Positions 13,125 to 38,670 of a stretch of DNA of 64,000 nt are shown in pieces. The notes beneath the pieces were generated by a model. It was not told the DNA's origin. It made no database searches and saw nothing but the letters and a program-made list of their open reading frames with translations. Origin of the DNA: Candidatus Dojkabacteria bacterium (GTDB lineage Bacteria; Patescibacteriota; Dojkabacteria; J137); NCBI GenBank assembly GCA_030950485.1, contig JAUZRK010000021.1, forward strand, positions 5,498 through 69,497. The letters run 5' to 3'. The position numbers and the translations under genes were made by a program. Position 1 is the first letter of the stretch. Each line of letters begins with the position of its first letter.

Positions 13125-13134
13125 GGTTACTGCT

Positions 13135-14961: not shown

Positions 14962-16071
14962 TTATGATTTATCCTCTTGATTTAGAATAGTTCGCATGTC
15001 ATCAACAACAGTTTTGAGACCAGTTATTAAAGTAAACTTGTTTACAAAAAATTCCGTCACAAATTCAAATAATTTATTTTCTTCTTTTGTCAAATTAACC
15101 GAATTTGGATCAGCTTCATAATAAGCGAAAGTCCTCTGAGTGTTAGGAGTTTCCGTTGCAATCTTCTCATTAATATCAATTAAATCATAAATAACACCAT
15201 GAAATCCTACTAATTTTCCTGTAAGTAGAGATAATGAGAGTTATGGAAATGTTAAATTATATAGATAACTGTATAAGAGGTCCATGTACTCTTTTCCTGT
15301 AATGGTTTGACCAGGAAAAATACTTTCAGCCATTCCTAATATGAATGCCTGTACATTTTGTCCACCTGGATTACGTGCAACTGTATGATATATATTTACC
15401 CCAATATTTACTTGGGACATTGCTCTAGTATTTAGTATTTCAAACTCTGTGATGTTAAGAGGGGCTAGTTTGAACTCTTTAATCTGCCCAACTACTAGCT
15501 CTAAATATTTATTAGCAGCATCTGATCCTTCTTTAAAATCTAAACCTCCTAAGTCACCTAAAACAATTTCTGTAGAACCTTCGTTAAAATATAAGCTAGA
15601 TAAACTTAAATTCCCTATTCTTATCCCTGCTGTATTTGCAGTATCAATGTGTTTTGCCAAAGAGTCTAATAGATCAAGCCTTGTTTCTCTCGTGACTTTT
15701 TCTAGTGCTCCTTTTTTAAGTTGATCAAAAGTAGTACCTTCTGGATAATAAGGCATTCTGAATTTAAGTCCTATAGCATTATCTGTATCACCCTCTGCAT
15801 AAACAGGAATAATACCAGATGTCGTGATTGTAGGAATACCTAGTTCTTTTAAAATTTCTCTCGCAGAATGATCCAGTAAGAGTTGTAGGATTGTTGACTT
15901 AGGGTGTCTTTCAAAGTACACAATCTTTTCTACAATACCACTTTCGGGGTATACTTTGATTTCAGCTAGGTGTGCCGCTCGTTTAATAATTGTTGGCTCT
16001 TCATTTAGCTCGATTGTTAAATCTAATGATCCATCATTCTTTGAATCTAGTTTATTGTTTTTATCATCCAT
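14962..16071 (-). pseudogene. Hypothetical protein interrupted by an in-frame TAA (at 15241..15243) with 92 further in-frame sense codons
   Basis: The ORF 15241..16071 ends in TAA, and the same frame stays open for 92 more codons (LSLSLLTGKLVGFHG...QEDKS) down to 14962. This is unlikely by chance in 30% GC DNA. Confidence 0.5.
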
Positions 16072-16255
16072 ATATCACTCTAAATATTGTAGAGGATCTT
16101 AACATGGTTGCTATAATTCGACAATTAATGTTTCTGTTTAAAGACAAGTGTAATGAATATCTGCAATTACCCACTGAATTAGTTTAAATTAAAACACTAG
16201 GTGAATTAAGATGATAAAATTGCTTTAGTGGATAATAATAAAATCTATATTTAGT

Positions 16256-17197
16256 ATGAAGAAGATAAAAACATTATTTATGGGAACTAGCGAGTTCGCT
16301 GTTCCAGTTTTAGAAGGACTACTTGAAGCAGAGGAGATTGAAGTAACCGGCGTTATAACTCAGCCAGATCGTCCAGCAGGAAGGAAACAAGAATTGAAGC
16401 CAAGTCCACTTAAAGAAGCCGTTGGTAGATTGAATTCTAAAATGGCACTGCATCAGCCAGAGAGAATTAGCAGATTTAAGAAACACATCTTTGAAGAAAT
16501 AAAACCAGATTTAATAATAGTAGCTGCATACGGGCAGATAATTCCAGGAAGTATTTTGGAATTTCCAAAATTTAAGTGTCTAAATGTACACGGCTCATTA
16601 CTACCTGTACTAAGAGGAGCTGTACCTATTCATATGGCAATCCTCCAAGGTCTTGAAAAGACAGGTAATACACTTCAGATCATGAGCAAGAAAATGGATG
16701 AAGGTCCAATTGTATCTACTAGAGAGATTCAATTAGAAGGAAAAGAATATTTTTCAGAGTTATTTGATAAATTAGCTAAGTTAGCTAAAAAACAAATCGT
16801 TGAAGATATTTCTAAATGGGTTAGGGGAGAGCTAACTCCTAAAGACCAGGATGACTCTAAAGCTACTTACTGCTTTATGGATGATATAAAAAAGGAAAAA
16901 GCAGAGATTACTGAAGGTACTTCCGTAATTAAAGCAGAAAGAATGGTTAGAGCATTTAATTTATGGCCAGTAGCCTGGTTTCAATTAAGAGAGAGTAGTA
17001 ATAAAGGTAAAAGAATTAAAACATTTAAGTCTAAGTTAGCTAATTTAGTTATTAATAATGTACCTGACATGGCTTTGTTTGAAAATGATGGAGATCTTTA
17101 TCTTAAGTTAAAAGACGGAGTACTGCTTCTAGAAGAAATTCAACTTGAAGGAAAACAGAGGAGAGAAGGGAAGGAATATTTATATCTTATTGATTAA
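16256..17197 (+). CDS. fmt: Methionyl-tRNA formyltransferase
   Basis: FMGTSEFAVP, HGSLLPVLRGAVPI and SKKMDEGPI, plus the C-terminal Fmt domain. Confidence 0.9.
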   Translation: MKKIKTLFMGTSEFAVPVLEGLLEAEEIEVTGVITQPDRPAGRKQELKPSPLKEAVGRLNSKMALHQPERISRFKKHIFEEIKPDLIIVAAYGQIIPGSILEFPKFKCLNVHGSLLPVLRGAVPIHMAILQGLEKTGNTLQIMSKKMDEGPIVSTREIQLEGKEYFSELFDKLAKLAKKQIVEDISKWVRGELTPKDQDDSKATYCFMDDIKKEKAEITEGTSVIKAERMVRAFNLWPVAWFQLRESSNKGKRIKTFKSKLANLVINNVPDMALFENDGDLYLKLKDGVLLLEEIQLEGKQRREGKEYLYLID

Positions 17198-17208
17198 TTT
17201 AAAATTGA

Positions 17209-17740
17209 ATGACAGATAAAGCTTTTGCAGAAATTATATTTGATAAGACTACTGAATTAGAAATTGAAAATGCAGTTAGTAATCTAATCACTGAAGACGA
17301 CCTATATTATTCTGATCAGGTAGAACATATAAGAGGTTTGATGACTAAAACTCTACATTTAACACTATTCTTGGGACTACCGGTCTGGTTTATAAATGAT
17401 AAAAAACTTCTTAAATTACTTAAATCTGTTGAGATCTCTGAACTTAAACCAGAGAAATTGAATTTCTTTGTAGGCTATATGGGCTTATATAAGGTTTTAT
17501 ATTTAGAAGTAAAGGATAAAGAGATGAAAGATTACTTTCAGTTGCTAAAGAGATAGCTGCTTTCGCACCTGAGCGTAACTTTAGAGTGGCAGACTTCCGT
17601 CCTCATATAACTGTAGCCTATGTTAATAAAGATTTTGAGTTGCCTGCAGAATATGACTTAGGTTTAGTTGAATTGAAAGTAAGTGAAATTAGGGTTAGTA
17701 AGCATTCTGATTTTGTTAAGAAAGTGAAAGAAGCTAAATA
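17209..17740 (+). pseudogene. 2H phosphoesterase (LigT / 2'-5' RNA ligase-like), frameshifted
   Basis: The first HxT motif (HLTLFLG) is in ORF 17209..17556. The second (RPHITVAY) and the C-terminus are in the -1 frame at 17556..17740. Joined length is about 177 aa, typical for LigT. Confidence 0.6.
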
Positions 17741-17742
17741 AT

Positions 17743-19522
17743 TTATTTATAACCTTCAGCCTGTTTAGTAAACATCTCATTATAAAGCCCAGTGGTGTTC
17801 ATCAACTCTTCATGACTACCACTTTCTATAATCTTGCCCTCATCTAATACTATTATCCTATCAGCATTTCTAACTGTAGCGAATCTGTGTGAAACTATTA
17901 TCATAGTTGTATCTTTTGCTAAATGACTTATTTCTTCAAAGACTCTTGCTTCAGCTAGAGCATCTAGTGCAGAAGTTGGTTCATCTAATATTACTAATTT
18001 TGGATTAGCAAATAGCGCTCTTGCAATACCAACTTTTTGCCATTGGCCACCTGAAAGATCAGTTCCATTTTCAAAATCTCTACTAAGTAATGTTTCTATT
18101 CCTTCTGGTAACGTATCAATAAAAGTATTAATTCCTGCTTTTTCTGCACTTTCTTTAATGAATTCTAAATTATTCTCATCTTCTAAGTTTCCAATTGCAA
18201 TATTATCTTTTAAACTAAAATTTTGCAAAAGATTGAAATAGTACTCCCCAAAGTTTGTAATATGAATCTAAATCTAGTTCTTTTATATTTATATTATTTA
18301 TTAAAATCTCTCCCTCGTTTACATCATAAAATCTTGCAAGAAGCTTTATAAGCGTTGTCTTTCCAGCACCATTTTTACCAATTAATGCAATTTTTTCTCC
18401 AGAGTCTATTTTGAAACTTAGATTTTTGAAAATATACCTCTTAGTATTTGGGTATTTAAAGCTAACATTTCTAAACTCAATCTTTGGTGATGACTTTTCT
18501 ACTTTTTGAGGATTTTTAGAAATTATAATTTTTGATTTTAAATCAAAAATTTTTCTTAAGTCGCTTACATAATTCATCTGTTCAATCAGACTAGAAATAC
18601 TTCCTTCTACTTGAGAAAGTCTGTTGGATACGACAAAAATGTTTGCAAGCAAAAAAGTATAAGAACCTATTTTTAACTGACCATCAAGAATTTCTGAGAT
18701 TAAGAACATGTTAAATCCAACAAAGATTAGTGAAGAAATTATTGTTGAAATAAACATGTAAAAGAATTTTCTATTTAATGGTTTATTAGCAGAATTGACA
18801 AAGCTTAGTTGAGCATTTAAAAATACACTAATAATTTTATCTGCAAAACCATATACTCTTGCTTCTTTTATACTATCTAGATCGTCAAATGCTTTCATTG
18901 CTTTATTTGAATGTATTTTCTCATCTCCATCAGTATCCCAAATATTATAGAGTGCCTGTCCGTATTTTTTACTTACAATGAAATCAAATGATATTGGAAT
19001 AAATAATAAAAGTATAAATATAGGATTTATTGTTAGAAGAAGTCCTCCAACAAGTATTAAACCTATTAGTGCAGCCAAGAGCCTAGTAGATTGTCTAGCA
19101 ATTGTTACAGCTCTCCAAAAAATAACTGTACCAGCTTTTTGATGCATAAGATTAAACTCTTTACTCTCATGTGCTTCTATATCTGTAGTTACTATTTTAT
19201 GAATATATTTTGCCCAACCTAGCCTATTCCATTTATAGTTGAATTTTATTTCTGAAAAATAGTCTAATGCAGAAGTAAAATCTTCCAGGATGATTAAAAA
19301 TAATAAGGCCAATAAATATGGACCAAATTCAGGTATTAAATCTTTACTTTGAAAATCTTCTAGTTTTACAAGTTTATTTATTAGTAAACCACTAACAAAA
19401 GTAACAATTACTGGGGCTAATACATTAATAAGTCTTACAATAAGCATTAGTAAGACTTCTGGCTTACAGACCTCCCAAAGTAGCTTAATTATCCATTTGA
19501 AATCTGAAAGTTTTTGTTTCAT
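17743..19522 (-). pseudogene. ABC exporter (fused permease-ATPase, type I exporter), split by a frameshift near 18215..18228
   Basis: The 435-aa piece holds the TMD and Walker A (GKNGAGKTTL). The 161-aa piece holds the ABC signature LSGGQWQ, Walker B ILDEPTSALD and the H-loop. The pieces abut in different frames. Confidence 0.75.
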
Positions 19523-19553
19523 ATAATTATTCTATCGTATTTTATCTTCTATT

Positions 19554-21316
19554 TCATTTCTTACTAAACCCACCACTTTGAATATCCCAAAGATTCTTGT
19601 AAATTTTAGAGTCACTAAGAAGCTCTTTATGAGTTCCGCTTTCAGCTACTGAACCATTTTCTATTACAAAAATATTATCGCAATGCGTAATTGTACTTAA
19701 TCTATGCGCAATAATAATCACTGTCTTATTCTGACTTAAAACTGTAAATGCTTCTTGAATTAGTTTCTCACTCTCGCTGTCTAACATACTAGTAGCTTCA
19801 TCAAATATAACTACTTTTGGGTTCTTAATTAAAACTCTAGCAATAGCAATTCTTTGTTTTTGACCTCCAGAAAGTTTTAATCCTCTTTCTCCAACTTTTG
19901 TTTCATAACCATCTTTTAAAGTCATTATGAAATCATGAATTTTTGCTTTCTTACAAGCTTCAATAATAATCTCTTTATTTCCCAGATTATCTAAATCATG
20001 AATGTCATCCAGAGCATATCCAACATTATAGTAAACGCTTCTATTAAATAAGACTGGCTCTTGGGGAACTAATCCAATAATTTCTCTAAGATCTTTATTT
20101 GAAAGATCTTTTATATTAACTCCATCAATCTCAATGCCTCCTTTCCAAACATCATAATATTTCATTAGGAGTCTGGTTAAGGTTGATTTACCACCTCCTG
20201 AAGTACCTACAAAAGCTATTGTTTCTTCTGACTTTATATCTTAATTTAAATCATTAATAACTGAAATATCACTAGTATAACCAAATGAAACATTTTGAAA
20301 ACTGATATTACCTCTAACCTCGCTTATAATTTGAGGATTGTTTATATATTTAATACTAGGCTTTGCATCGTATAGCTCGTAGAAATCTTCAATTGTAGGA
20401 AGGTCTTTCAATACATCTCTAATATTAAAAATCATTCCCATAACTCTTCCCGTCATCTGAGTTAAATAAGTTAAAATTACTACAACCTCACCTAAAGTTA
20501 AGTTTCCTTCTGTATACAATGTATTAGTAACTACTGCTGGGACTATAAAAACAAAAACCCCGGCAAGTCTTGCAACAAAATCAATAAGTCTAAAAGTATC
20601 TTGATATTTAAATTGTGCCTCTTGTGCAATTTCTAACTTTTTATCTAAATATTTAACTTCATAATCTTCTTTACCAAAAGATCTTACTGTTTCAAAATTT
20701 GAGACACCGTCAATTATCGTACTATTTCTATCGTATTCAGCGTCTTTTAATCGTTCCCTTTGCTTGATATTCATCTTAATTGATAACAGAAGAAAAGGTA
20801 CGGTAACTATTATTACTAAGATTGACGTTAAACTAATTAGTGGAGAGATAAAATCATAACTACAACAGGAATCATTAGATTGCCGAAGTTCTCCATTGTA
20901 AACCACTCAAGCCTCCATAAAAACATATCTATAGCCGATCTACTATTCAATATAATAGAAATCATTTTTCCTGTTTGTTTATTTACATGATAGTTATAGT
21001 CTTGCTCAATTACATTTTTATACACGTCATGCATTAAGTCTCTCATTAGTTTTCCCAGATGCCTTGACTTTGGATAGAATGTTAGAGGTTCTAAGATTAA
21101 TGGAGAGGCTATTAATACTCCTATTAAAAGTATCATCTTAAACATATCTAACTCCTCAACTGAATTTGCAGAATCTATAATTTGACCAATAGCTAGCGGA
21201 ACAAGGTTGTATGAAACTAAGAGAATTATTGATGCAATTATTCCGAGTATATGAAGTGATTTATATTTTTTTGATAAACTAATATACCTTTTATAGAGGC
21301 CGAAGAAATTGTTCAT
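19554..21316 (-). pseudogene. Second tandem ABC exporter, interrupted by one frameshift (about 20837..20906) and one in-frame TAA (20241..20243)
   Basis: Three consecutive ORFs cover the TMD N-terminus, the TMD C-terminus, and the NBD. Walker A (AFVGTSGGGKSTL) lies in frame immediately after the TAA. LSGGQKQR and the H-loop follow. TGA marks the natural end. Confidence 0.75.
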
Positions 21317-21407
21317 AGTTTGTAATGATAATTGGGTAGTGTAGTATAGCGTATGAACTTAGATTTGTTTAGTGAATTCGATTACACTAATATAAATTTA
21401 TGGAGAA

Positions 21408-22073
21408 CTATGATTCAATATTTAAAGATATATTTGAATCATTTGGTTGGAATAAGATTCCTTCCGCAACTCCATTACCTTTAAGTAGAATTATCCCGTC
21501 ATACTTTATTCCACCAGGAATATTGTTTCTAAAGTATTCATTTAAGGCGATATGCGGATGTCTACTGCTTTTATAAGATTCTCCCCAAACTTCATAGAGC
21601 AAGAAATCTATAGATTCATAAGCCTTATCACTGGTTGGATCTATAATCAAGAAAGTACCAGTTACATCTAAATCATATCTTTTCATCTCTTCATCATTTT
21701 TATACCCATCTACTTGAGTACCTTTTAAATCGCCAAGACCTATATAAAAACCTGCGCCTAAAGACATATTTCTATTTGTATATTTATGAGTAGAATCTAA
21801 AACTATATCTTTTCTAGAATAATGCCAGAAACCATCTGCATTTTTAATTGACGCAGTAGCGATACCCTGTAATTCTTTACCTTCGAATGAATGAGTAGAG
21901 ATTGATTTATTTCCTAAATTATAACCTTCAAGATTTATTGTTGATTGAGCATTCTCAACTTTTTCAAAGCCTTTATTAATACGAAGTCGTCCTGAGTTAC
22001 CTACAGGAATAGAATCACTGTTGTCTTCTGAAGGTGTATCTGTGAAATTACTGCTTACTTTAAGTGAACCCAT
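21408..22073 (-). CDS. Hypothetical protein
   Basis: ORF only. Confidence 0.35.
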   Translation of the reverse strand: MGSLKVSSNFTDTPSEDNSDSIPVGNSGRLRINKGFEKVENAQSTINLEGYNLGNKSISTHSFEGKELQGIATASIKNADGFWHYSRKDIVLDSTHKYTNRNMSLGAGFYIGLGDLKGTQVDGYKNDEEMKRYDLDVTGTFLIIDPTSDKAYESIDFLLYEVWGESYKSSRHPHIALNEYFRNNIPGGIKYDGIILLKGNGVAEGILFQPNDSNISLNIES

Positions 22074-22183
22074 CTTTAGCTAATGCTTATTTACTGAATT
22101 AATTATAAGCTTTTTATATGTTTCTGTCTAAAGAATGAAGTGGAAAAAGGATTTAACGAGAGCTGGTTAAGAGATTAACAAAA

Positions 22184-22255
22184 CTCCCCAGACTGGATTC
22201 GAACCAGTGACCTGCCGGTTAACAGCCGGACGCTCTACCGCTGAGCTACTGAGGA
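22184..22255 (-). tRNA. tRNA-Asn (anticodon GUU)
   Basis: The reverse complement folds as a cloverleaf: acceptor UCCUCAG/CUGGGGA, T-loop GGUUCGAAUCC, anticodon loop CUGUUAA, discriminator G. It is very similar to the canonical bacterial tRNA-Asn. Confidence 0.88.
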
Positions 22256-22364
22256 ATACTTTGTTTTTATCAATGTGCTTAGGAATTATACAGTAAACTT
22301 TTTAAGTATCAAACATTTTTATGTTTTTCTAAATAGTTTATTATGATGTATACATTTAGTTTCT

Positions 22365-23111
22365 ATGAATCATACTAAAAATAACCTCTCATTCCTCCTT
22401 GGTAGCAATGAAACGGTTGAGGATGTTGTAACAAAAATGAATCTACTAAGTAGATTTTTTCAAAGCTATTCTGATCTTTCGGGCTTTATTCCTTTTCTAG
22501 AAACATATAAATATGTAACAGGAGAGGTATATTTATCTCGTGAAACATTTAATAGCTTTCCTCAAACTGAGAACCTAGATATATTTTTTGCGAATTTGTA
22601 CTTTAAACCAATCTATAGTTTTCTAACTGAGGGTAAAATGCCGTTACCTTGGAGAACTTACTTAGAATATTGTAACAATAATTTTCACAACCCATTTCTA
22701 CAAGTACTAATAGGTATATGCGTTCATATTAATTCCGATCTAGCATAATCTTTAGTTGAAACTGATTTTAATGAAGAAGATGATCTCTTCCATATAGACA
22801 TAATTTTAATGCATATTGTTCCTAAGTTAATGAGTTATCTAGCATTTAAAGAGCACGATATCTTAGCAATTCTAGGTCTAGCTGCTTTACCTATAACAGA
22901 GCATGAAACAAAGTCTATAATTCTAAGATGGAGACATGATGCTTGGCGAAATGCGAAAAAATTAAGATCTGGAGAAATTAATTTAAATGACTTAAGAATA
23001 GAAACTGATAGATTAGTACAAAGAATAATTTGGGAGTGGAAAGAGTATTTAAACCCAATACATGCTTTTAAATTATTACGAGATCTAGAGAGCTTGAGTG
23101 TCGATATTTAA
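22365..23111 (+). pseudogene. Hypothetical protein with an in-frame TAA at 22746..22748; 22365..22748 and 22809..23111 share one frame
   Basis: The two ORFs are in the same frame, and the frame is open across the TAA (INSDLA*SLVETDFNEEDDLFHIDIILMHIV...). Confidence 0.45.
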
Positions 23112-23366
23112 AATATCTTCTTGGAGAAACAGCAGAGAATTCAGTAGAAGAAAAAAAAGAAAGTTCCCGTTAGCGAGAGCTTGTATTATACGTTAAGCAT
23201 CAATCCACTAACTTGACGTCAGCGTTGATGTCGTTTGAAATATTTGTTTTAAATTATTAAAATTCATAGTTAATTAGACCGTATTCTTTCTATTTCTTAT
23301 CCATTCAAATAAAAACTGTCCAGCCCAAGAAGTATACTCACCAGAATAATCACTTAACCAACTACT

Positions 23367-24109
23367 CATTTCTTCATACTTTTAGGTAAATTATATAATT
23401 CAGTTGCTATTTTAATTCCCCAAGTATCAATTGGAGCAATTCGATCAGTAACTCAAGAAAAAGTTAAAATACAATCTGCAGCCTTATTTCCAATTCCTTT
23501 GATTTTTAATAATTCTTCTTTCACCTCATCTTCGGAAAGATATTTATATCTTTCTAATAAGTTACTTTTTGTTAAGTATTCAATAGCAGAAATAATATAT
23601 TTATCTCTATATCCAACTCCAAGAGGCTTAAGATCCTCGCTTGTAGCTAAACTTAGTTCCTCCAAGTTTGGAAATAGACTAAAACTACGATTATCAATTA
23701 CGAGCTTTTTCCCAAATAGACTCTTTAATAGGTTAATAGTCTTTCTAATTGAAGTTATATTTTTATTTTGAGAAATAATGAATGAAATAATAGTTTCAAA
23801 AAGATCTTGTTTTAAGAGTCTAAGTCCTGGATATTTTACTATGGAGTCATTAATATAATCACCTTTATTAATTGATTTAATCATTGATTCATAGTCAAAT
23901 GATAGTCTGAAGTATTCTTCAATGATTCTTATATCATTTAAAACAGGGTAACTTTGCCAGTGAAGAGTATTTTCTTCCAAACTAATCTTCAAGATAGAAT
24001 TTTGATGAGAACCATAGTAAAAGTTGCCTATTAATTCCCAATTAAAACTTTGTCCACCTACTAAAGTAGTATCCAAATTTATAGCTTCCTTTAACTTAAG
24101 TGTATTCAT
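23367..24109 (-). pseudogene. ogg: 8-oxoguanine DNA glycosylase/lyase (OGG, HhH-GPD) with an in-frame TGA at 23453..23455
   Basis: OGG N-terminal motif GGQSFNW. HhH-GPD region with the catalytic Lys (IKGIGNKAADCILTFS), then TGA, then VTDRIAPIDTWGIKIA (the expected Asp-containing segment) in the same frame. Confidence 0.65.
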
Positions 24110-24139
24110 TGTTAGAATTATATAACTAAAAACATAATT

Positions 24140-24427: not shown

Positions 24428-24428
24428 A

Positions 24429-24920: not shown

Positions 24921-24992
24921 AGCTGATAGATGTTGGTGACCAGTGGTTATTGGTGTGTAATATGATAAAATTAATGAAAGTATCTACAAAAA

Positions 24993-26841: not shown

Positions 26842-27615
26842 ATGTTTAAATCTTTCACTGAAAGCGAGAATAGATTTAGAAACCTGAGGATTTTTAATCT
26901 GGTTATGGGTTTCTTTCATCTTGCACAAGCTGTAATTATGCTTATGATTAGTAACGATTATACGCAGACTCTAACTACTAGTTTTATAAAAGGAGTTCAG
27001 ACTGGAGAGAGAGAATTTGTTTTCAGTACAAAGCCTGAAAATTTTATTGATATAAATTTGGGAGCTGCAGTCGCAGTATTCTTGTTTTTATCAGCAGCAG
27101 CACATTTTCTTCTAGCTTCTCCAATGTTTTATAACTGGTATGTTAATAACTTAAAGAAAGGAGTTAATTACGGAAGATGGATTGAATATTCACTAAGTTC
27201 TTCATGGATGATTATAATTATTGCAATTCTAACTGGAATGTTAGATGCGCCAAGTCTATTATTGATGGCTTCTTTAAATGCGATGATGATTCTTTTTGGG
27301 TATGTGATGGAGCTTCACAATCAGACTACTGAGAAGACTGATTGGACTTCGTTTGTATTTGGTTGTATTGCTGGAGCTATACCTTGGGTAATAATCGCAT
27401 GGTATTTTATCTCTGCAGTTACTAACTTTGAAGGAGAAAATCCAATTCCAAAATTTGTTTATGGAATATTAATATCATTATTTGTCTTCTTCAATATTTT
27501 TGCAATCAACATGTACTTGCAATACAAAAAAGTTGGTCCATGGAAAAACTATCTTTTTGGAGAGACTGTTTTTATTATTAAGAGCCATAAATATGTAAAA
27601 GGTCATTTATGCTAG
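26842..27615 (+). CDS. Heliorhodopsin homolog, C-terminally truncated (TM7 and the Schiff-base lysine region missing)
   Basis: Strong similarity to the heliorhodopsin family along TM1 to TM6 (GFFHLAQAV, RWIEYSLSSSWMIIIIA, FGCIAGAIPW, YGILISLFVFFNIFAINMYLQYKK, WKNYLFGE). The ORF ends about 12 aa after GETVFI with non-helical sequence, and the next gene starts 9 nt later. Confidence 0.75.
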   Translation: MFKSFTESENRFRNLRIFNLVMGFFHLAQAVIMLMISNDYTQTLTTSFIKGVQTGEREFVFSTKPENFIDINLGAAVAVFLFLSAAAHFLLASPMFYNWYVNNLKKGVNYGRWIEYSLSSSWMIIIIAILTGMLDAPSLLLMASLNAMMILFGYVMELHNQTTEKTDWTSFVFGCIAGAIPWVIIAWYFISAVTNFEGENPIPKFVYGILISLFVFFNIFAINMYLQYKKVGPWKNYLFGETVFIIKSHKYVKGHLC

Positions 27616-27624
27616 AATTTAGAT

Positions 27625-28215: not shown

Positions 28216-28854
28216 TTAAACACTCTTGAATGCCTTAACTGTGTCTTTAACTCTTTCTAAATCTTTCCAGTGGATGTGGAGAGAGTCAATAAAGTGAATA
28301 TACTTTCCAGGTTTAACACCTACCTTTTTTGCTACATAGTATTGTAATGACACGAATTCAGAAATATTCATAAATATTTTTTTATACGCATCTGAAGAGT
28401 GAGCATGAGTATGCCATTCTAGCGTATCATCTTTGATTCTTGCCCAAAGTATTTGGGTACATGGGCTAATTTTAGAATCTTGATCTATATTCTTATCCCA
28501 AATTGAAATTTGTGATTCACCAGTAGGTAGCTTTTCTTTTAACTTTTTGATCATGAATTCGATTTGACTATTTGGCTGGTCAAAAATTCGATGATGGTAA
28601 ATTTTTGTCCACTCGTGAACTACTAGCTCTTCATTTTCTCCTGAGTAAATGTAATTGTTAATTATCTCTAAATCTTTTTTACCCATTGGAAATAGATTGT
28701 CGTATTCTATATGACTTGAATTCTCGAGTGTAATAAGTGCTGGCGAGTCTCTAAAGTATTTTTTGTTATCTGCATTTTGATTAGAATCGAGTAGAGTAGC
28801 TAATGTTTTTCTCCAAACTTTCGAAATTGAATTATCTTCGTTAATAGTTATCAT
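28216..28854 (-). CDS. Thymidylate synthase-fold protein (divergent ThyA/dNMP hydroxymethylase family)
   Basis: ISPCTQILWARIKDDTLEWHTHAHSSDAYKK...FIDSLHIHWKD aligns with ThyA APCHAFFQFYV...CQLYQRSCD...GGDTHLYSNH. The catalytic Cys context is conserved. Confidence 0.5.
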   Translation of the reverse strand: MITINEDNSISKVWRKTLATLLDSNQNADNKKYFRDSPALITLENSSHIEYDNLFPMGKKDLEIINNYIYSGENEELVVHEWTKIYHHRIFDQPNSQIEFMIKKLKEKLPTGESQISIWDKNIDQDSKISPCTQILWARIKDDTLEWHTHAHSSDAYKKIFMNISEFVSLQYYVAKKVGVKPGKYIHFIDSLHIHWKDLERVKDTVKAFKSV

Positions 28855-28927
28855 AGCGAGATGATACTAGCTTGATTTTCTTTACTCAAGGGGAATATTG
28901 CGTGTGTAAGTATGTATATGGATCTAT

Positions 28928-30294
28928 CTAAAACCAGTAGTCTCTCTTATTCTGAACATTATGCGTAGCAATCACTTTTTTTCTAACGCACTGCATTATT
29001 CTCGACTCAGTATTGCCCGAGCCTGAAGCTTTCCAACCGGTCCAATGATCCCATCCTGGGAATTCATTTAATGGATCATTTATAAACACCATTCCAGTTT
29101 CGACTTTAGAAGCTATATCTTTAGCAAGCTCTATATTTTTTGTATAAATCGAAGTTGATAACCCATATTTTGTATCATTATTTAATGCAATTGCTTCTTC
29201 AATAGTTTTAAATTTTATAACAGGGATTACATTTCCAAATGTTTCGGTTTGAACTAAATCAAAACTAGTATTAGGTAGCGCAACAATACTAGGGGTTAGG
29301 AAGAATCCTGTTTTGTTTTCATTCCACCGTGAATTAATCGTGCTCCTTTTAGCTCTGAATCAATGATTTTATTTCGGACAATTCCTCGGCTTATTTTATT
29401 TATATATGGACCGTATTGTATATTTGTCTTTAATTGAGACACTTTATTTACTAGTGTTTCTATAAATTCATCATAAATTTTCTCATAAATAAAGACTCTT
29501 TTAGTACCAACGCAGTCTTGTCCTGAATGATAAGTGGCTCCCCAAGTGATTACGCTAGCAGTAAATTCAATATTTGAATCATTTAAAACAATTGCAGCAC
29601 TATTTCCACCCATCTCAGCTTCAATTGGTGTACTTCCAGAATTTCTTTTTATATCTAACCCAGCCTCAACAGATCCGACAAAGAATATCTTATCTATTTC
29701 AGATTTAACCAGTTCTTTACTAATAGATTCATCGCCTAAAACTATCTGTATTAAATCTTTATCGAAACCTGCTTTTACAAATACTTCTTTTAGTTCAATC
29801 GCAAGAGCAGGGGAGTATTCAGAAGGTTTAAGTATTACTGAATTTCCTGAAATTAAATTTACAACAATTAGAGCCATTGGTACGAACCATGGGAAATTCC
29901 AGGCTGTAATTAATGCATTTACTCCATACGGCTCATATTTAAATTTAGCTTCAGTATTCTCGTCTATCTCAAATCCTTCATCTAAGCTTTCTAATTTTTT
30001 AACTTGTTTAATATAGTAATCAATATCGCTAATACTTGTTTCTACTTCAACTTCAAAGTCCATAGGTATTTTTCCTGTTTCTTTCTGAGCTATCTTAATC
30101 AATTTTTCTTTAACTTTCTCTATCTCACTCTGTAAATTCTTGAATAATATTATCTTGTCTTCTAATTTAGTAACCTTCCATTTAGTTTGTGCGTTCTTAG
30201 GTTCCAGTATTTGCTGGGCTAATTCTTGAGTCGAAGTTGCTTCGTATTCTTTATAAAGTTCTTCTGTAACTGGGTTTATTGTTTTGAATTTCAT
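28928..30294 (-). pseudogene. Aldehyde dehydrogenase family, frameshifted near 29296..29340 (A-homopolymer context)
   Basis: The N-terminal ORF has the catalytic-Cys motif GQDCVGTKRVF and ends just after the GG motif (ARLIHGG). The C-terminal ~118 aa (GFFLTPSIV...ETFGNVIPVIKF...YGLSTSIYT...GMVFINDP) lie in another frame at 28928..29300. Confidence 0.75.
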
Positions 30295-30335
30295 AACTAA
30301 ATTATAATCTTAAAAGTAATGCTACTGCAAAATTA

Positions 30336-30845: not shown

Positions 30846-30957
30846 TTGCTCATCCGTGCTTGAAGCTGGGAGAGTTGTACTAATTATTTCTACTATAAGT
30901 TCTCTACATAATCACATTAATGTTACGACTTTATATTAAAAATCTGGTATACTAAAC

Positions 30958-31776: not shown

Positions 31777-31777
31777 T

Positions 31778-32365
31778 TTAATAATAATCATAATCTTCAT
31801 CATCATGCATCTTCTTGTATTTTCTATGATCATAAATTAAGAAAAGCAGTATAGTTCCGCAAATTATTGAAAGAGATATTCCTATTACTAAAAGTTTTTC
31901 AGCTCTAGTTTCAATACCAATTTTATCCAAAAATGATTCATCTGTTGGAGAAACTATTTGATCGCTAGAAGCAACTGTAAAGGTTTCTCCAGCAACTCGT
32001 CCTGATTCATTCTGTACATTATTTACATCAATCCCAGCAGCAACATCAGTCCTAGTATCTAAAGCACTTAAAGCGCTAACTACATCACTAGCGGATGTGT
32101 TTTCATTTATCTCAATATTTGAAGCAGCTGTATTTAAATCAAAGTTTGAATTAGAAGTTTCTGGGTTATTAAGTACTACTACCTCTCCAGTAAATTCTGT
32201 TTCTTCTAAATTTTCTAGATTAGCACTGTTATCTTCATATTGTAGATATGAAATATATAAAACTGGCAAAATTAAAAATAAGCCAAGTGTTATAAACACA
32301 CCTAAAATTGATGAAGGGCTTTTATCTACCTGTAATCGTTGTCGTTCTTCCGTATCTGTATACAT
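31778..32365 (-). CDS. Hypothetical membrane-anchored acidic protein
   Basis: Two predicted TM segments flank a Ser/Asn/Asp-rich region. Confidence 0.35.
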   Translation of the reverse strand: MYTDTEERQRLQVDKSPSSILGVFITLGLFLILPVLYISYLQYEDNSANLENLEETEFTGEVVVLNNPETSNSNFDLNTAASNIEINENTSASDVVSALSALDTRTDVAAGIDVNNVQNESGRVAGETFTVASSDQIVSPTDESFLDKIGIETRAEKLLVIGISLSIICGTILLFLIYDHRKYKKMHDDEDYDYY

Positions 32366-32394
32366 TCTTATTGCCTAATTATTGACTTCCTATT

Positions 32395-33450
32395 CTAATT
32401 AAAACCTCGGTACTGTGCAACTTTTGCTTGATGTTCTTCAAATGTTTCTGAATAGAATGTCTGCTTATCGTCTTCAACATGAAAGAAATAATAATTTTCT
32501 GTTTCATTTGGATAGAAAGCTGCTTTAATTGATTCGAATGAGGGACTATTAATTGGTCCTGGAGGCAGTCCAGTATATTTATAAGTATTATAAGGATTAT
32601 CTATTTCTAAATCTGCTAGAGATGCACCAGCTTCATTCTTACCCGTAACATAATTTACAGTAGCATCTGATTGTAAAAGATAATCATCTGCTAGTCTATT
32701 ATGAAAAATCCCAGAAATATCTCCTCTGTCATCCCAACCAGCTGCTTCTTTCTGAATTATAGAAGCTAGAGTTAATGCTTCGTAAAGATTCGTAATGTTG
32801 TCTTGATCTAAATTAAGAGGCTCCAATCCAGTTATTAAATTTCCAAGTCTTACAAGTTGTCTATCAATCACTTCGATTGCAGTTACATTTTGATCTAGTT
32901 CATATGTATCAGGGTATAGATATCCTTCTAAACTATTAACATCACTTGGAAGATAATTATCTAAGAATTCTGTAGCTTCTGGAGAAAAATTATAGCTTCT
33001 TGGTGAGTTAACTACAGCACTATATTCTGTAATACTAAAAGCTGAATTCTCTCCTAATTCATCCTTAATTTGTTTTGCCATTAAATCAGATCTAAGGTCT
33101 TCATCAATTTGTACTAAAACTCCTTCTCTATATGTATCTAGTTTTAGTGTTTCAATGATTACAGGTACATCACTTCCGGCTTTAATTAAATGCTCTCCAA
33201 ATTTTACATGAGTATTTACATTGTTTAATTTTGTATAAACCTTTATAGCTAATACATTGTCAACTAAACCTTCATTCTTAAGATTTTCCAGAACGTCTGC
33301 AAAGCCCTCTCCTTGATTAACGATGAATAATGTATCTTTTTCTACTTTGTTTTCATAAATAGCGTTGTTATACCAATTCCTACCATAGATAAAAACGCCA
33401 ATCATACCTACGAAAATTATTAGTAATAAAGTTAATATTGTTTTTCTCAT
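32395..33450 (-). CDS. mltG: Endolytic murein transglycosylase MltG (YceG-like)
   Basis: N-terminal TM helix. YceG signature ASIIQKEAAG...FHNRL...LQSDATVNY...DNPYNTYKYTGLPPGPINSP. Confidence 0.85.
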   Translation of the reverse strand: MRKTILTLLLIIFVGMIGVFIYGRNWYNNAIYENKVEKDTLFIVNQGEGFADVLENLKNEGLVDNVLAIKVYTKLNNVNTHVKFGEHLIKAGSDVPVIIETLKLDTYREGVLVQIDEDLRSDLMAKQIKDELGENSAFSITEYSAVVNSPRSYNFSPEATEFLDNYLPSDVNSLEGYLYPDTYELDQNVTAIEVIDRQLVRLGNLITGLEPLNLDQDNITNLYEALTLASIIQKEAAGWDDRGDISGIFHNRLADDYLLQSDATVNYVTGKNEAGASLADLEIDNPYNTYKYTGLPPGPINSPSFESIKAAFYPNETENYYFFHVEDDKQTFYSETFEEHQAKVAQYRGFN

Positions 33451-33506
33451 TTTATTTTGTATTATTTAAAATTCTTTTATATATTAAAGTATACCAAATC
33501 TAAAAT

Positions 33507-33998
33507 ATGAAAAATCTTAAACTGATAGAATTTCTTAAAAAAAGTCTTAATAACTGCTACCTTGGAGACTTAAAAAAAGCAGAAAATATTGAAAGAAAAG
33601 GCTTTTTTGAAATGGAATTTAGTGAAGATGATTTAAATTATAGAGATAGTTTTATCGGTTTTTATTTATCTACGGGCTCAGAAATAATAAGAGAAGGCGA
33701 TAGGCCAATTTGGGTCCGAAACTATAGGGGTGGGTTGATTGATAAGTATGTAGGAAATAAAGAAATTTTTACTGAGCTTGAAGAATTTTTAAGAAAATGT
33801 TTAAAGATAGGGTTACAAGAAGATGGGTTTACTCCAAGAGGACCGAAGGAACTTAAATCAGGAGACTGGTTATATAAATGTAATTGGCAGGGGGACTTTA
33901 ATAACTTTAAAGGGAGAGAAACAATTAAACTAAAAGAAGAAGAAATTTTCTACCATGACTTTATTGGCGGAGATATTATTGGGAAGGACTTTAATTGA
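33507..33998 (+). CDS. Hypothetical protein
   Basis: ORF only. Confidence 0.35.
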   Translation: MKNLKLIEFLKKSLNNCYLGDLKKAENIERKGFFEMEFSEDDLNYRDSFIGFYLSTGSEIIREGDRPIWVRNYRGGLIDKYVGNKEIFTELEEFLRKCLKIGLQEDGFTPRGPKELKSGDWLYKCNWQGDFNNFKGRETIKLKEEEIFYHDFIGGDIIGKDFN

Positions 33999-34443
33999 TT
34001 TTATGATCTAAATATTCTTGTAACATTATTCTTGCAGCCTCGCTATCTAAATGTTTCGACTTGAATTTGGAATAATGGTGGTTGATTTTTGCTTGCTTAC
34101 TTGTTAATGTCTCATTAATCTTAACTATCTTTAATGAATCATTATTTTTTTCAAGACTTTCTATAAACTCATCAATCTCAAAACAAATCTTTGTTTTCTC
34201 GAAATCGGAATTTAATGGATAACCAATTAGAATAATATTAGTACCATTTTTTTCTAAGACCTCATTAATTTTCTCAATTAAATTAGTATTTGTATCGACG
34301 TATAGAATGGGAAGCTTTAATGCAAAAGCTAAGTCTTCATCTGAAATTGCTAATCCAATTTTTTTTGTTCCATAGTCAATGCTAAGGATTCTTTCATTAT
34401 CCATAAATAATTTTAACAGAAAAATCTTTCTCAATTCTTTCAA
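33991..34443 (-). CDS. ruvX: Holliday-junction resolvase-like RuvX/YqgF
   Basis: ILSIDYGTKKIGLAISD matches the YqgF signature. Size about 150 aa. Confidence 0.75.
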   Translation of the reverse strand: MKELRKIFLLKLFMDNERILSIDYGTKKIGLAISDEDLAFALKLPILYVDTNTNLIEKINEVLEKNGTNIILIGYPLNSDFEKTKICFEIDEFIESLEKNNDSLKIVKINETLTSKQAKINHHYSKFKSKHLDSEAARIMLQEYLDHKIN

Positions 34444-34492
34444 ATATAAAACATTAAAGTTCTATTCATCATAAATAGTAGGAAAATAATTT

Positions 34493-35191
34493 ATGAAGAG
34501 TTTTCTAAATATCGTAGTAAATATATTTTTACCAAAGAGCTGCTATGTTTGTCGTAAAGAGGGTAGTTATATTTGCTCTAAATGTTTTAAAAGAAAGTGC
34601 GAATTTAACTTTTTTCAAAAATGTCACGTATGTAAGAAGGAATCACATATAGGTTTTGTTCATAGAGATTGTAGGGAATCAACTTATCTTGATGGTTTGA
34701 TATATGTTACTAATTATAATGATCTTGTTGAAAAACTTATCATCAATGGAAAATACAATTTGTATTTTGAAATATTTAATGATTTAGGGAAGATAATGGC
34801 GGAGTATTTTAAACTTTATAATTTTAGTAATCCGACTTTGACATATGTCCCGTCTTTTAAAAGAAAAATTAGAGAACGGGGATTTAATCAAACAAAAATC
34901 TTAGCAAAGAAAGTTAGTAGTGAAACTGGAAAAAAATGCATGAGGCTTTTGAAAAGAACTAGACATACGCACTCTCAGCTAGGGCTTTCTGAAGCTGAGA
35001 GATTTAGAAATCTTAAAGGAGCTTTTGAGATAAATGAAAAAGAATTTAGTTATCTAGATAGTGCCTCAACTATCATACTAATAGATGACGTTTATACAAC
35101 AGGAAGTACACTAAATGAATGTGCAAAGGTTATTAAAGAAAGATTAAACATAACTGTAATCGGTTTTGCTTTTGCAAGGAGTAGAGTTTGA
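34493..35191 (+). CDS. comFC: ComF-family phosphoribosyltransferase-like protein
   Basis: N-terminal Cys4 zinc-finger (CYVCRK...CSKCFKR...CHVCKK) and C-terminal PRTase motif ILIDDVYTTGSTL. Confidence 0.7.
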   Translation: MKSFLNIVVNIFLPKSCYVCRKEGSYICSKCFKRKCEFNFFQKCHVCKKESHIGFVHRDCRESTYLDGLIYVTNYNDLVEKLIINGKYNLYFEIFNDLGKIMAEYFKLYNFSNPTLTYVPSFKRKIRERGFNQTKILAKKVSSETGKKCMRLLKRTRHTHSQLGLSEAERFRNLKGAFEINEKEFSYLDSASTIILIDDVYTTGSTLNECAKVIKERLNITVIGFAFARSRV

Positions 35192-35217
35192 TATAAATGA
35201 CTTTTTTAAATTATGTA

Positions 35218-36084
35218 TCATTCAAACTTAGCAAACTGATTTTCTCCCCAACTCTTGATTACGCTCGGAGTCACTGCTTCTGCTGAAACCCAAAGCGTTA
35301 GAAAAATTGATTTAAAACTTTTTGCTAATGAACTACTCTGAATGACAATTCCATAAGCTTCATCTTCATTTGTAGAAGCAATCATTGCAGTACTTTCTGT
35401 AATAGCTAATCTTTGATATTGCTCAAAGATAGGCGAGTCAATAAATCTATATTCTCTTGCTTTTATATAATCAGGGTCTCTTTGATATTGGTAGGTTAAA
35501 ATATGTTTTGTCCAATCGTTTAGCGGGATTAATTCTTTAATTACTTGACCAGATTCTAAAACTTTTTTAGTTACTTCTTCTATATCCTTGTTAATAAAAC
35601 CTTTTCCAAAAGCATCCATAGGCATTAAATGTGTTATAACATTTATAGGTACCTCACCTCTAACTTCATTTTCCATTAAGTACACTTTTTTAGCTCCTTC
35701 AATTCCTTCATAGTATTCGAAATTTGAATTTGAAGGTTTATCCTTATGAAAACTTTCTTTTAAATCTGGAAGGATATTGACTAGATCTACTTCTAATTTA
35801 TATAAATCATTATGTTTTTGTCTAACTGTTTTTCTTAGCGTCGAAGGATTTTTAGCTTTGATTTTTATCTGCTGTTTTGTAAATCCATCACTTCTCCCAA
35901 GCTCTAGTAATCCTTTAAGCGATAGATCTGTAATTACATCGTATACGGTAGTTCTAGGTATAGCTGTTAATTTTGATAATTCATACGGAGATGTCTCATC
36001 AAGCTTTAAAGCTTCTAAATATACTTTTATTTCATTTTCGGAAAGTCCAATTTTCTCTAAAGTCTTAAAAGTTTGTTTATTCAT
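35218..36084 (-). CDS. TrmB-family transcriptional regulator (second copy)
   Basis: N-terminal IGLSENEIKVYLEALKLDETSPYELSKLTAIPRTTVYDVITDLSLKGLLE. Confidence 0.55.
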   Translation of the reverse strand: MNKQTFKTLEKIGLSENEIKVYLEALKLDETSPYELSKLTAIPRTTVYDVITDLSLKGLLELGRSDGFTKQQIKIKAKNPSTLRKTVRQKHNDLYKLEVDLVNILPDLKESFHKDKPSNSNFEYYEGIEGAKKVYLMENEVRGEVPINVITHLMPMDAFGKGFINKDIEEVTKKVLESGQVIKELIPLNDWTKHILTYQYQRDPDYIKAREYRFIDSPIFEQYQRLAITESTAMIASTNEDEAYGIVIQSSSLAKSFKSIFLTLWVSAEAVTPSVIKSWGENQFAKFE

Positions 36085-36187
36085 TATTTCAATAGAGTAG
36101 TAGTAATGTTAATTTTAGCTTCATCGACACTGACCGTCAAGTTTGGATGAATCTGGTTTTTAACGTATTATCCTAATACTAAAATAT

Positions 36188-36259
36188 GGTGTGGTAGCCA
36201 AGCGGTAAGGCAATTTCTCGGAAGAGAATAGATCGTAGGTTCAAATCCTACCCACACCT
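36188..36259 (+). tRNA. tRNA-shaped gene with a Gln-type D-arm and a non-canonical anticodon arm (isotype undetermined; possibly non-decoding or damaged)
   Basis: Perfect 7-bp acceptor stem (GGTGTGG/CCACACC), T-arm GTAGG-TTCAAAT-CCTAC, D-arm GCCAAGCGGTAAGGC. The anticodon region ATTTCTCGGAAGAGAAT folds best as a 5-bp stem (TTCTC/GAGAA) with a GGAA tetraloop. A T5 run follows. Confidence 0.5.
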
Positions 36260-36276
36260 TTTTAAAAATAAACAAA

Positions 36277-37278
36277 ATGAATAAAGAAAAAATAGTTGAA
36301 AAATTAATTGAGCTTCTAGATTTCACAGAAGCAACTCTTACAGAAGTAGATGAAGATCTATTGAAAAATACAGGGCTTGAATCATTTATTTATGTAAAAC
36401 TTACTACACAGAAATTTAGAAACGCGGCATTAAGTAAAAAAATGAAGAGATATATTAGATCTGTTATTAAAGACTCAATAGAGCAAAATCGAGCAATTCA
36501 TATTACTGTTCCATTTGGTGGATACAAACATTATAAAAACAAATATTACCCAAATATTGGTTGGGCAGAAGTTTTTAATCTTATTCATCTTTTAGATTAT
36601 GTCAAAGTAATTTCTAAGGCGTACAAACCTGGAATAATTTTAGAATATTTCTATGACGAGATTTTTGTCGAGAGATTAAATAAAATCCCCCAAAAAGATC
36701 TCGATACTTATAATAAAAACTTTGCTGATTTATGTGCTCATTATAACGAATTAACTCCAAGTCATATTGATATTAGATATTCTAAGATAAGCGATAAGGT
36801 AGGTCCGGAAGTGCTTCATACTCGTTTTGATAAAGCAATTGAAAAGCTTGAGAAAGAGTGGGACGATCTTGGGGAAGATGCGAAAAATATAAGGTTAGGT
36901 AAAGCGAGAAGAAATTATGCTTTTAGTATTGAGCATCTTTCAGGGAGTCAACAAAATGAGATCTTAAAAGAACCAGCACTAATTCACGATGCATTTATAT
37001 TTGGTGACTGGGAGGAAGGAGTACACTGGGCTTTTGAAAACTATATGATTCCAATTGGCTTCAGATATACAGGAGAGTGGGGAATTGGAATATATAGTTC
37101 AAAAGGTGGGAGCTCAGTTCAATTCTGGGTTGGACATGGAGTTCTACAGATAGTAGAAGACAAAGTTAAGCCACATATCTATACGCATAAGCAATTAGAA
37201 CAGATAAAATCTTCGATAGAATCTATAAACTTAGATCTGCAATATCCCTTCCCAGACTCAATTATTATAAGTCACTAA
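36277..37278 (+). CDS. Hypothetical protein
   Basis: ORF only. Confidence 0.4.
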   Translation: MNKEKIVEKLIELLDFTEATLTEVDEDLLKNTGLESFIYVKLTTQKFRNAALSKKMKRYIRSVIKDSIEQNRAIHITVPFGGYKHYKNKYYPNIGWAEVFNLIHLLDYVKVISKAYKPGIILEYFYDEIFVERLNKIPQKDLDTYNKNFADLCAHYNELTPSHIDIRYSKISDKVGPEVLHTRFDKAIEKLEKEWDDLGEDAKNIRLGKARRNYAFSIEHLSGSQQNEILKEPALIHDAFIFGDWEEGVHWAFENYMIPIGFRYTGEWGIGIYSSKGGSSVQFWVGHGVLQIVEDKVKPHIYTHKQLEQIKSSIESINLDLQYPFPDSIIISH

Positions 37279-37339
37279 TGCTTGGCAGCATATATCTATT
37301 TGTGCTAGAATCTCAGGCTAATTTATTAATAGATTTAAC

Positions 37340-37804
37340 ATGGCTGATGAGTATAATGGGGATGATTTGAATATTGAGGATCCAGAAGCTACAGTTCCGG
37401 ATATAACCCAACCTGGACAACTAGAAGAATATCATACTGAGGCAATTCCTAAGAGACAACTTGAATCTGTTATGAAGAATATGAGCAATATCGTTGCTTT
37501 GCTAACTAATGGGGATAAAATTGTACTAGAAGAATTTCGTAACGAAGCACATAGGACCAATGCTATTAACTATTTGAAAATTTGTCACAATGCCCTTGTT
37601 CGAATTGATCGAGCTAACGGTGACTATCTTAGTGTTAATCAGAAGGGGCATGATACTGATGATACTATAATAGATGACTTGTTGAGGCGGATTGATGTAT
37701 TAAAAGATTTTATGACGGAATACTTTCCTAAGACAGATTCATTTGAATTTGAGAAATCCATTAGAATACATAGGAAACCATTTGTGAATAATATTAGAGG
37801 TTAA
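37340..37804 (+). CDS. Hypothetical protein
   Basis: ORF only. Confidence 0.35.
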   Translation: MADEYNGDDLNIEDPEATVPDITQPGQLEEYHTEAIPKRQLESVMKNMSNIVALLTNGDKIVLEEFRNEAHRTNAINYLKICHNALVRIDRANGDYLSVNQKGHDTDDTIIDDLLRRIDVLKDFMTEYFPKTDSFEFEKSIRIHRKPFVNNIRG

Positions 37805-37816
37805 GCTTAAAAAACT

Positions 37817-38670
37817 ATGAGTATTCAAGAAGTACAAACAGAAAAAGTATTCCCAGATGAAACAAAACCAGAGCTTGAATTTGAAGATACTCTTGATTCT
37901 ACAGATCCATTTTTTGGAGCAGATACGACGGCTACAGACTCAGGATTTTTTAATCAGGGGGTGCAAAATCAAGATGGAGTACCAGGAGAATATACTCTTC
38001 TCTCAAACAATATCAGGAGGCAGTCGGCTCTAATCAAGACACATTTAAATAAACAAATTGAAGGTAATCAAAGTTCAATAAGAAGCTTAGTAGAGAGTTG
38101 TATTGATAATATGTACTTGCTAGCACTTTCTTATTTTGAAGATAAGGATATTGCGTTTCCTCCATTAGCTGAAGATGTTGAGACGCACGCATATTTTAGA
38201 TATGTTTTTTTAATGTCTAGAGTAGATGAAGTTGGCACTTACATAGGTAATCAAGAGGTAAAAAGCTTTAAATATATAATGGGCAAGTTAGATGAACTTG
38301 ACTTCTTTGCTTTTACTTTGATGAGTAATACTCTAATTATCATTAATTATATAAATACTTCTATAAAAGAAATATCGAATTAAGTTGATACGAAAGAAAG
38401 AGAAAGCGGAGATCCTACCGAACTTGATCGTATTGTTTACATAGAGAGCACTCAACCCGCCAGATTCATTGATGACTCAGATCAAGACCCACCTGTTACC
38501 GAATCGTCTAGATATGACGAGACTAATATTTCTAATAAAAAATTAGCTAGTGCAATAATATTTCAGCTCGAACTTTGCGAGAAGTTAATTGCAGACGAAT
38601 CTAACCCGGATCAAGAATATATGATTAATGCTAAAACTAAGGCATTAAAACAGTTTATAAACTTAGGATA
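37817..38670 (+). pseudogene. Hypothetical protein with an in-frame TAA at 38381..38383 followed by about 95 open codons in the same frame
   Basis: Same-frame continuation VDTKERESGDPTELDRIVYIEST...KALKQFINLG up to the TAA at 38668..38670. No ATG/GTG/TTG start near its beginning. Confidence 0.4.

Follow-up and report, generated by a model that had tools for sequence, protein, structure and literature searches.

In-frame stop codons in accessory genes of a Candidatus Dojkabacteria genome: probable young pseudogenes under the standard genetic code

Why do five genes in a single stretch of a Candidatus Dojkabacteria (Patescibacteria, or Candidate Phyla Radiation [CPR]) genome each carry a stop codon that is followed, in the same frame, by sequence that still appears to be coding? 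The stretch analyzed here (the window) comprises 64,000 nucleotides of assembly GCA_030950485.1 (contig JAUZRK010000021.1, positions 5,498 to 69,497) and has a GC content of about 31%. The original prediction, made from the nucleotide sequence, had attributed the four TAA codons and one TGA codon to AT-biased nonsense mutation in a genome undergoing reductive decay or, alternatively, to low-level programmed readthrough. Our analysis indicated that the genome has the standard bacterial code and that the five stops are probably real, having arisen by point mutations that created nonsense codons in recently formed pseudogenes. The five affected genes, with their stops, were as follows.

14962-16071, minus strand: hyp15k, a hypothetical ORFan gene of 369 codons if read through; TAA at 15241-15243, followed by 92 open codons.
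19554-21316, minus strand: ABC1, an ABC exporter half-transporter gene with two lesions, a frameshift and a TAA; TAA at 20241-20243, context ...VINDLN-stop-DIKSEETIAFVGTSGGGKST.
22365-23111, plus strand: a DUF5995 gene of 248 codons; TAA at 22746-22748 (codon 128), followed by 120 open codons.
23274-24109, minus strand: OGG (8-oxoguanine DNA glycosylase), with an OGG_N Pfam match and two lesions; TGA at 23453-23455, context ...GIGNKAADCILTFS-stop-VTDRIAPIDTW.
37817-38671, plus strand: hyp38k, a hypothetical ORFan gene of 284 codons if read through; TAA at 38381-38383, followed by 95 open codons.

Each stop was found exactly where it had been predicted. At the base composition of the window, about 7.9% of random codons are stops, and the probability of a 92-codon stop-free stretch was recomputed as about 5e-4, in agreement with the value near 5e-4 originally given for roughly 90 codons. 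Since four long open continuations occurred among roughly 50 to 65 gene ends, chance is no explanation for the open stretches. Moreover, the downstream pieces showed coding-like codon usage in the same frame, as had been anticipated, with scores of 0.27 to 0.39 bits per codon; scores above 0.25 occurred in just 0.1% of 92-codon windows taken off frame, and intergenic controls gave negative scores in all frames. No start codon was present for 20 to 79 codons in the downstream pieces, and thus these pieces are not separate genes.

Three of the stops could be compared with intact homologues, and in all three cases (ABC1, OGG, and DUF5995) the homologues carried sense codons at the corresponding position. 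The ABC1 stop aligned, with no gap, opposite Leu in four of four nucleotide-binding domains from the PDB (E ~1e-64), implying an ancestral change of TTA to TAA. All ATPase motifs of ABC1 were intact, with Walker A located 13 codons past the stop and the first ATG after the stop lying beyond Walker A. The OGG stop, as predicted, separates the catalytic Lys from the catalytic Asp, both of which are present. When its frameshift (described below) was repaired, OGG aligned with 4ejy over residues 10 to 274 (E = 2e-34, with two small gaps, neither of them at either lesion) and with 3f0z over residues 19 to 274 (E = 4e-33), and Ile or Met was found opposite the TGA in these structures. The only hydrophobic codon that is a single step from TGA is TTA, and a change of TTA (Leu) to TGA is therefore implied.

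The DUF5995 gene provided the most direct comparison of sequence on the two sides of a stop. Its Pfam match (profile positions 1 to 211 of 225) ran straight across the TAA, and six intact homologues of 235 to 264 amino acids were available, the nearest of which had 248 amino acids and was 48 to 49% identical. The stop column in these homologues read Q, Q, Q, H, N, and V; the preponderance of Gln implies a change of CAA to TAA. Columns invariant among the homologues were retained at 29 of 29 positions upstream of the stop and at 16 of 17 positions downstream (45 of 46 overall), and at these strictly invariant columns upstream and downstream conservation did not differ significantly. A looser criterion of five of six homologues was confounded, as the query groups with P0126. 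The genomic contexts of the homologues were unrelated to the region of the window in which the gene is found, and a scan of genome contigs with the DUF5995 protein, for which the 8-residue patterns were too strict, revealed no relative.

No homologues were found for the two ORFan genes. For hyp15k, only its own sequence was recovered among 5.8 billion proteins, and for hyp38k only its own fragments were returned when HMMER was run in full against 1.84 billion representatives; Pfam gave nothing for either gene. The 92 codons downstream of the hyp15k stop scored 0.279 bits per codon in frame versus values between -0.58 and -1.41 across the five remaining frames, and the 95 codons downstream of the hyp38k stop scored 0.269 bits per codon in frame. 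A transfer-messenger RNA gene (38971-39432, plus strand) is located directly 3' of hyp38k.

The original list of lesions was correct with respect to the five stops but incomplete, as at least five frameshifts in the same or neighboring genes had been overlooked. Two of these are second lesions in ABC1 and OGG. In ABC1, the frameshift is located in a T-run at about 20842-20857, within the membrane domain; positions 2 to 135 and 140 to 273 of the ABC_membrane profile were matched in different frames (Pfam), and the DNA at the junction pointed to a likely T5-to-T4 deletion. In OGG, the frameshift is in an A-run at about 23372-23386, and three-frame translation placed the C-terminal ...SGEYTSWAGQFLFEW in another frame. 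The remaining three frameshifts affect the following genes.

17209-17741, plus strand: a probable LigT-like 2H phosphoesterase gene; frameshift within 17520-17556.
17743-19522, minus strand: ABC2, an ABC exporter half-transporter gene and the partner of ABC1; frame break past the Q-loop, at about 18207-18226.
28928-30294, minus strand: an aldehyde dehydrogenase gene; frameshift in an A-run at about 29303-29322.

The aldehyde dehydrogenase gene was divided such that profile positions 8 to 341 of Aldedh fell in an open reading frame (ORF) at 29296-30309 and positions 342 to 448 in a second ORF at 28928-29359; the junction ...LIHGGMKTK / TGFFLTPSIV fits an A5-to-A4 deletion. The ABC_tran match of ABC2 was likewise split between ORFs at 18215-19531 and 17743-18267, the latter holding profile positions 79 to 137 of 137. 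When fused, the ABC2 nucleotide-binding domain matched PDB domains with E values of ~1e-47 to 1e-50, and the alignment needed a 2-residue gap exactly at the junction, where the PDB domains shown all have both residues. This gap points to a deletion of 5 or 2 nucleotides, unlike a one-base homopolymer slip. The LigT-like frameshift is the least certain lesion of the set: the two HxT motifs (LHLTLF and PHITVAYV) lie in two overlapping ORFs, and the protein fused across the junction gave weak matches below the Pfam thresholds (2_5_RNA_ligase2, E = 6e-4; LigT_PEase, E = 5e-3). In summary, homology continued past the lesion in ABC1 (both at the stop and in the membrane domain), ABC2, OGG, DUF5995, and aldehyde dehydrogenase, and under the organism's own code a full-length product is blocked, with no restart.

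ABC1 and ABC2 are likely the two halves of a heterodimeric exporter. Like TM287/288-type exporters, they are adjacent half-transporter genes that each encode a membrane domain and a nucleotide-binding domain with intact ATPase motifs, and TM288 of the TM287/288 heterodimer (3qf4_B) was among the PDB matches of ABC2 that have a single nucleotide-binding domain. Unlike in those systems, three lesions within 3.6 kb interrupt the two genes, and no full-length subunit is possible. The breakage of both halves is expected if a functional unit decays together once one partner has been lost.

The ten lesions were not evenly distributed. Eight of them fell within 15.2 to 23.5 kb (P ~9e-4), none within 1 to 15 kb, and two within 24 to 48.8 kb, such that the decay is local within the window, contrary to the genome-wide reductive decay originally proposed. 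The accompanying proposal that the nonsense lesions fall in accessory genes (export, repair, and hypotheticals) with coding-like sequence beyond them did hold. Indeed, the core genes rpoD, rny, parA, parB, ileS, fmt, greA, yceG, ruvX, yidC, the L25 gene, a Lon-like AAA gene, and ftsA were all intact, including the essential fmt (methionyl-tRNA formyltransferase; 16256-17194), which is located within the lesion-rich block. In a related Dojkabacteria genome, L003 (GCA_964635995.1), the gene order rny-parB-parA-ileS...fmt was kept and the block was absent, indicating that the block is dispensable. A tRNA-Asn gene (22183-22256, minus strand) lies inside the block; a search for att-like repeats of this tRNA or for island boundaries yielded only chance-level repeats, and no insertion-sequence expansion was visible.

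An AT-biased mutation spectrum was not needed to explain the stops. Of the changes implied by the homologues, only CAA to TAA is a GC-to-AT change, and TTA to TAA and TTA to TGA are not; the observed ratio of four TAA to one TGA to zero TAG matched uniform mutation of the codon usage of the window (50:28:22). The ancestral codons are inferred here, as are the age of the lesions and their origin by mutation rather than by a common consensus error. TTA (Leu) probably became TAA in ABC1 and TGA in OGG, and CAA (Gln) probably became TAA in DUF5995. Termination at the stops would give shortened, mostly useless products: ABC1 would end before Walker A and lack its ATPase, OGG would lack the catalytic Asp, the DUF5995 protein would be halved, and the hyp15k and hyp38k products would be shortened at their C termini. 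Given that 5.7% of substitutions create stops, the affected genes, which span about 9 kb and hold five nonsense codons, would have accumulated about 1% neutral divergence since inactivation. Such a short time would account for fragments that are still coding-like and for motifs that are still intact.

A different explanation is that the lesions were introduced as consensus errors by a noisy metagenome assembly, probably of long reads, and that the genes are intact in the organism. The original prediction had called for read-level verification of each stop but had left this explanation unweighed. We consider it unlikely, although it requires serious treatment, and a sister assembly of the same species (GCA_030949735.1; contig JAUZSD010000002.1; 63,462 bp), which covers positions 6255 to 54467 of the window, allowed the two origins to be weighed. 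All five stops and all five frameshifts, located at 15 to 39 kb, were identical in the two assemblies, as was every frame-change zone within the covered 6.2 to 54.5 kb; in the sister assembly, no protein had been called for the aldehyde dehydrogenase gene. Overall, the assemblies differed by about 19 indel events and 2 single-nucleotide polymorphisms (SNPs) over about 48 kb. Within 6.2 to 48.8 kb a single SNP was found along with 10 single-base indels, of which 9 lay in homopolymer runs, and each genic indel in this interval broke its gene in the sister assembly only (ileS, parA, the 6716-7357 gene, the 30336-30845 gene twice, and hyp38k). Differences that are dominated by indels and that fall in essential genes are a signature of consensus error in the sister assembly, probably long-read error. 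The 10 further sites of difference at 48.8 to 54.5 kb made this the region of highest disagreement, and consensus quality is poor there.

That poor region overlaps part of a giant gene that was set apart from the five-stop set.

50622-60934, plus strand: a giant repetitive surface-protein gene in seven overlapping ORF pieces.

These pieces imply a minimum of six frame breaks, at 52.7 to 56.2 kb, and a tblastn search with its intact 3' part as the query showed that one colinear module passes through frames 2, 1, 2, and 1 at 54.7 to 56.3 kb. The sister contig ends within this gene, at window position 54467. A second giant repetitive surface-protein gene (41300-47014, plus strand) is intact, encodes 1,904 amino acids, and has an internal 1.25-kb repeat at 79% identity.

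Several observations weigh against our interpretation of the lesions as mutations, and these should be considered together. The sister assembly contains plain consensus errors that break even ileS and parA, and many "pseudogenes" with internal stops are assembly errors, with internal stops becoming more frequent in poor assemblies (Cooley and Wright 2024, PMC11017572). The A/T homopolymer runs of the window, which numbered 783, 277, 93, 26, and 10 at lengths of 4 to 8, end abruptly at 8; no run of 9 or more was found in the window when about 5 were expected by extrapolation, and this cutoff may reflect the compression of runs in a long-read consensus. Three of the frameshifts resemble single-base losses in runs of five bases, a change that could equally come from errors. 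The affected genes are otherwise uneroded, with intact motifs and, in DUF5995, nearly all invariant residues retained, as would equally be expected from errors, and fragmented genes occur in another Dojkabacteria MAG (metagenome-assembled genome) as well. The cases of hyp15k and hyp38k consist of codon statistics, and no close relative was found in the collections searched (the nearest fmt was 57% identical). Finally, common errors would be possible if both MAGs stemmed from the same reads or the same draft; a search of the literature did not find the sequencing method of these MAGs.

Against an artifact stands the kind of lesion that the two assemblies have in common. Under the inter-assembly spectrum, in which a conservative 3 SNPs were set against 19 indels and 5.7% of substitutions were taken to give stops, the probability of at least five nonsense codons among ten lesions was 1.4e-8, and thus this error spectrum cannot yield the lesions observed. 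Five stops made by substitution would need about 90 to 100 random substitution errors, and errors of that density would leave hundreds of SNPs between the assemblies rather than the 2 found. The roughly 1:1 ratio of nonsense to frameshift lesions would be about what neutral decay generally gives. Systematic miscalls were also disfavored, because the five stop sites had no motif in common and there was no sign of a TTA-to-TAA miscall, the heptamer AATTTAG (36 copies) not being depleted relative to AATTAAG (23 copies). Contig ends are not the same in the two MAGs, which argues against a single draft. Moreover, the common lesions spared the core genes (0 of 10 lesions versus 2 of the 6 genic indels found only in the sister assembly at 6.2 to 48.8 kb, namely, those in ileS and parA; P = 0.03), and the 89 A/T runs of five or more bases in core genes contained no frameshift. 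The lesions instead clustered in an accessory block where consensus agreement was normal (2 differences in 8.3 kb, no worse than elsewhere), and the ABC2 lesion resembles a multibase deletion. The case is like that of spurious pseudogenes caused by assembly error (PMC11017572) in that near-identical assemblies differ in pseudogene count, the sister having extra single-base frameshifts; it is unlike them in that ten lesions are common to both assemblies, half are substitutions, and none is in a core gene. Together, these results support the conclusion that the extra indels of the sister assembly, in ileS, parA, and the other genes, have the properties of assembly errors, and that the five stops and the common frameshifts do not.

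We also considered the possibility that the shortened or split products are still functional or that the downstream parts are made separately. This would be most plausible for the ORFan genes, as the stop leaves 276 of 369 codons (75%) in hyp15k and 188 of 284 (66%) in hyp38k, and the upstream parts have normal codon usage. The downstream pieces, however, lack start codons for 49 codons in hyp15k and 79 in hyp38k, the first in-frame start appearing at codons 50 and 80, respectively, and ABC1 loses its whole ATPase and OGG its catalytic Asp, each with a second lesion besides. Functional products are thus very improbable.

Programmed recoding, in the form of low-level TAA or TGA readthrough, selenocysteine insertion, or a variant code (code 4 or code 25), can be rejected as extremely unlikely, even though the sequence past the stops is open and coding-like. 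Some CPR relatives (Gracilibacteria and Absconditabacteria) do translate TGA as Gly, and an in-frame TGA in a conserved enzyme of a low-GC candidate-phylum bacterium resembles what is seen in code 25 (TGA as Gly), code 4 (TGA as Trp), and selenocysteine systems. In contrast to such systems, the 64 kb contain just one TGA in frame, it occupies a hydrophobic Ile/Met/Leu site rather than a Gly, Trp, or Cys position, four of the five stops are TAA, and both TGA and TAA serve as terminators. The 49 gene terminators in the window comprised 32 TAA, 11 TAG, and 6 TGA, as expected from the earlier argument against codon reassignment, and the genome uses the standard bacterial code. For the genes originally cited as ending in TAA or TGA, TAA was confirmed in rpoD and ileS and TGA in the ABC nucleotide-binding domain, but rny ends in TAG. 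The alternative codes and a TAA reassignment were likewise rejected as candidates, given one TGA and four TAA codons in frame per 64 kb at positions corresponding to Leu, Ile/Met, and Gln. A selenoprotein was rejected for OGG, where the homologues have Ile or Met and where no selenocysteine insertion sequence (SECIS) element was found in the window, the Rfam matches being two tRNAs and one transfer-messenger RNA.

Programmed readthrough, the second explanation offered in the original prediction, was contradicted on several counts. TAA is generally regarded as the tightest bacterial terminator and accounts for most of the stops; the stops are not conserved in homologues; and the bases that follow the five stops (G, G, C, T, and G) provide no common context. 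In addition, readthrough could rescue neither OGG nor ABC1, as the second lesion in each, a frameshift, would still block a full-length product. No suppressor tRNA was found in the window, where the tRNAs present were tRNA-Asn and an odd tRNA unable to read stops.

The odd tRNA gene (36188-36259, plus strand) scored 56 bits against the Rfam tRNA model and has a Gln-type D arm. In the covariance-model alignment its anticodon loop is UCGGAAG (C33, anticodon GGA) with a C-A mismatch closing the loop; the minimum-energy fold instead gave 5 bp and a GGAA tetraloop, and ARAGORN reported a 4-base anticodon, "cgga." No difference between the assemblies was found in this stretch. The gene may represent a tRNA in decay or one of unconventional type, and it is no suppressor of nonsense codons. 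Elsewhere in the window, a heliorhodopsin gene (26842-27615, plus strand; Pfam E = 4e-83) is intact; the small gene that comes next, in the same frame, matched RHH_1 (ribbon-helix-helix) weakly. A thymidylate-synthase-like gene (28216-28854, minus strand; 212 amino acids) matched only profile positions 106 to 223 of 266 and could be a divergent short form or the result of N-terminal damage. Directly after rpoD, a gene at 1574-2407 (plus strand) encodes a fusion of HEPN and nucleotidyltransferase (Polbeta) domains. In L003, positions 11005-14057 hold a short GH3 fragment and an ABC-F-like gene that is split into pieces of 234, 74, and 192 amino acids.

Nonsense and frameshift pseudogenes of this kind are well known from recently host-restricted or otherwise decaying genomes such as those of Mycobacterium leprae and Sodalis glossinidius. 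As in those genomes, stops and frameshifts fall in recognizable accessory genes, some of which are hit more than once, essential genes are spared, linked genes (here the ABC half-transporters) decay together, and the fragments are still coding-like. The present case differs in that it involves a local 8-kb block and a few scattered genes of a CPR MAG, as seen in two deposited assemblies. The phenomenon itself is already known, alongside the error-induced pseudogenes of draft assemblies, and no new mechanism is suggested; either way, the finding has no bearing on the genetic code or on recoding. If the lesions were artifacts, they would be a warning about the quality of two deposited MAGs. There is also a lesson in method, in that a near-identical pair of assemblies separates random consensus errors, which are indels and strike essential genes, from common lesions, half of which are substitutions and which spare essential genes.

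If the lesions are real, they represent a small, ordinary case of accessory-gene decay and a data point for the loss of export and DNA-repair functions in streamlined CPR genomes. More tentatively, and with considerable doubt on our part, the assemblies may record a CPR population that had only just begun to lose genes, with six of the eight protein genes of the block, including the ABC exporter and OGG, lost within about 1% neutral divergence. If true, this would show directly how ultra-small genomes part with functions, and the absence of OGG might in turn increase the mutation rate.

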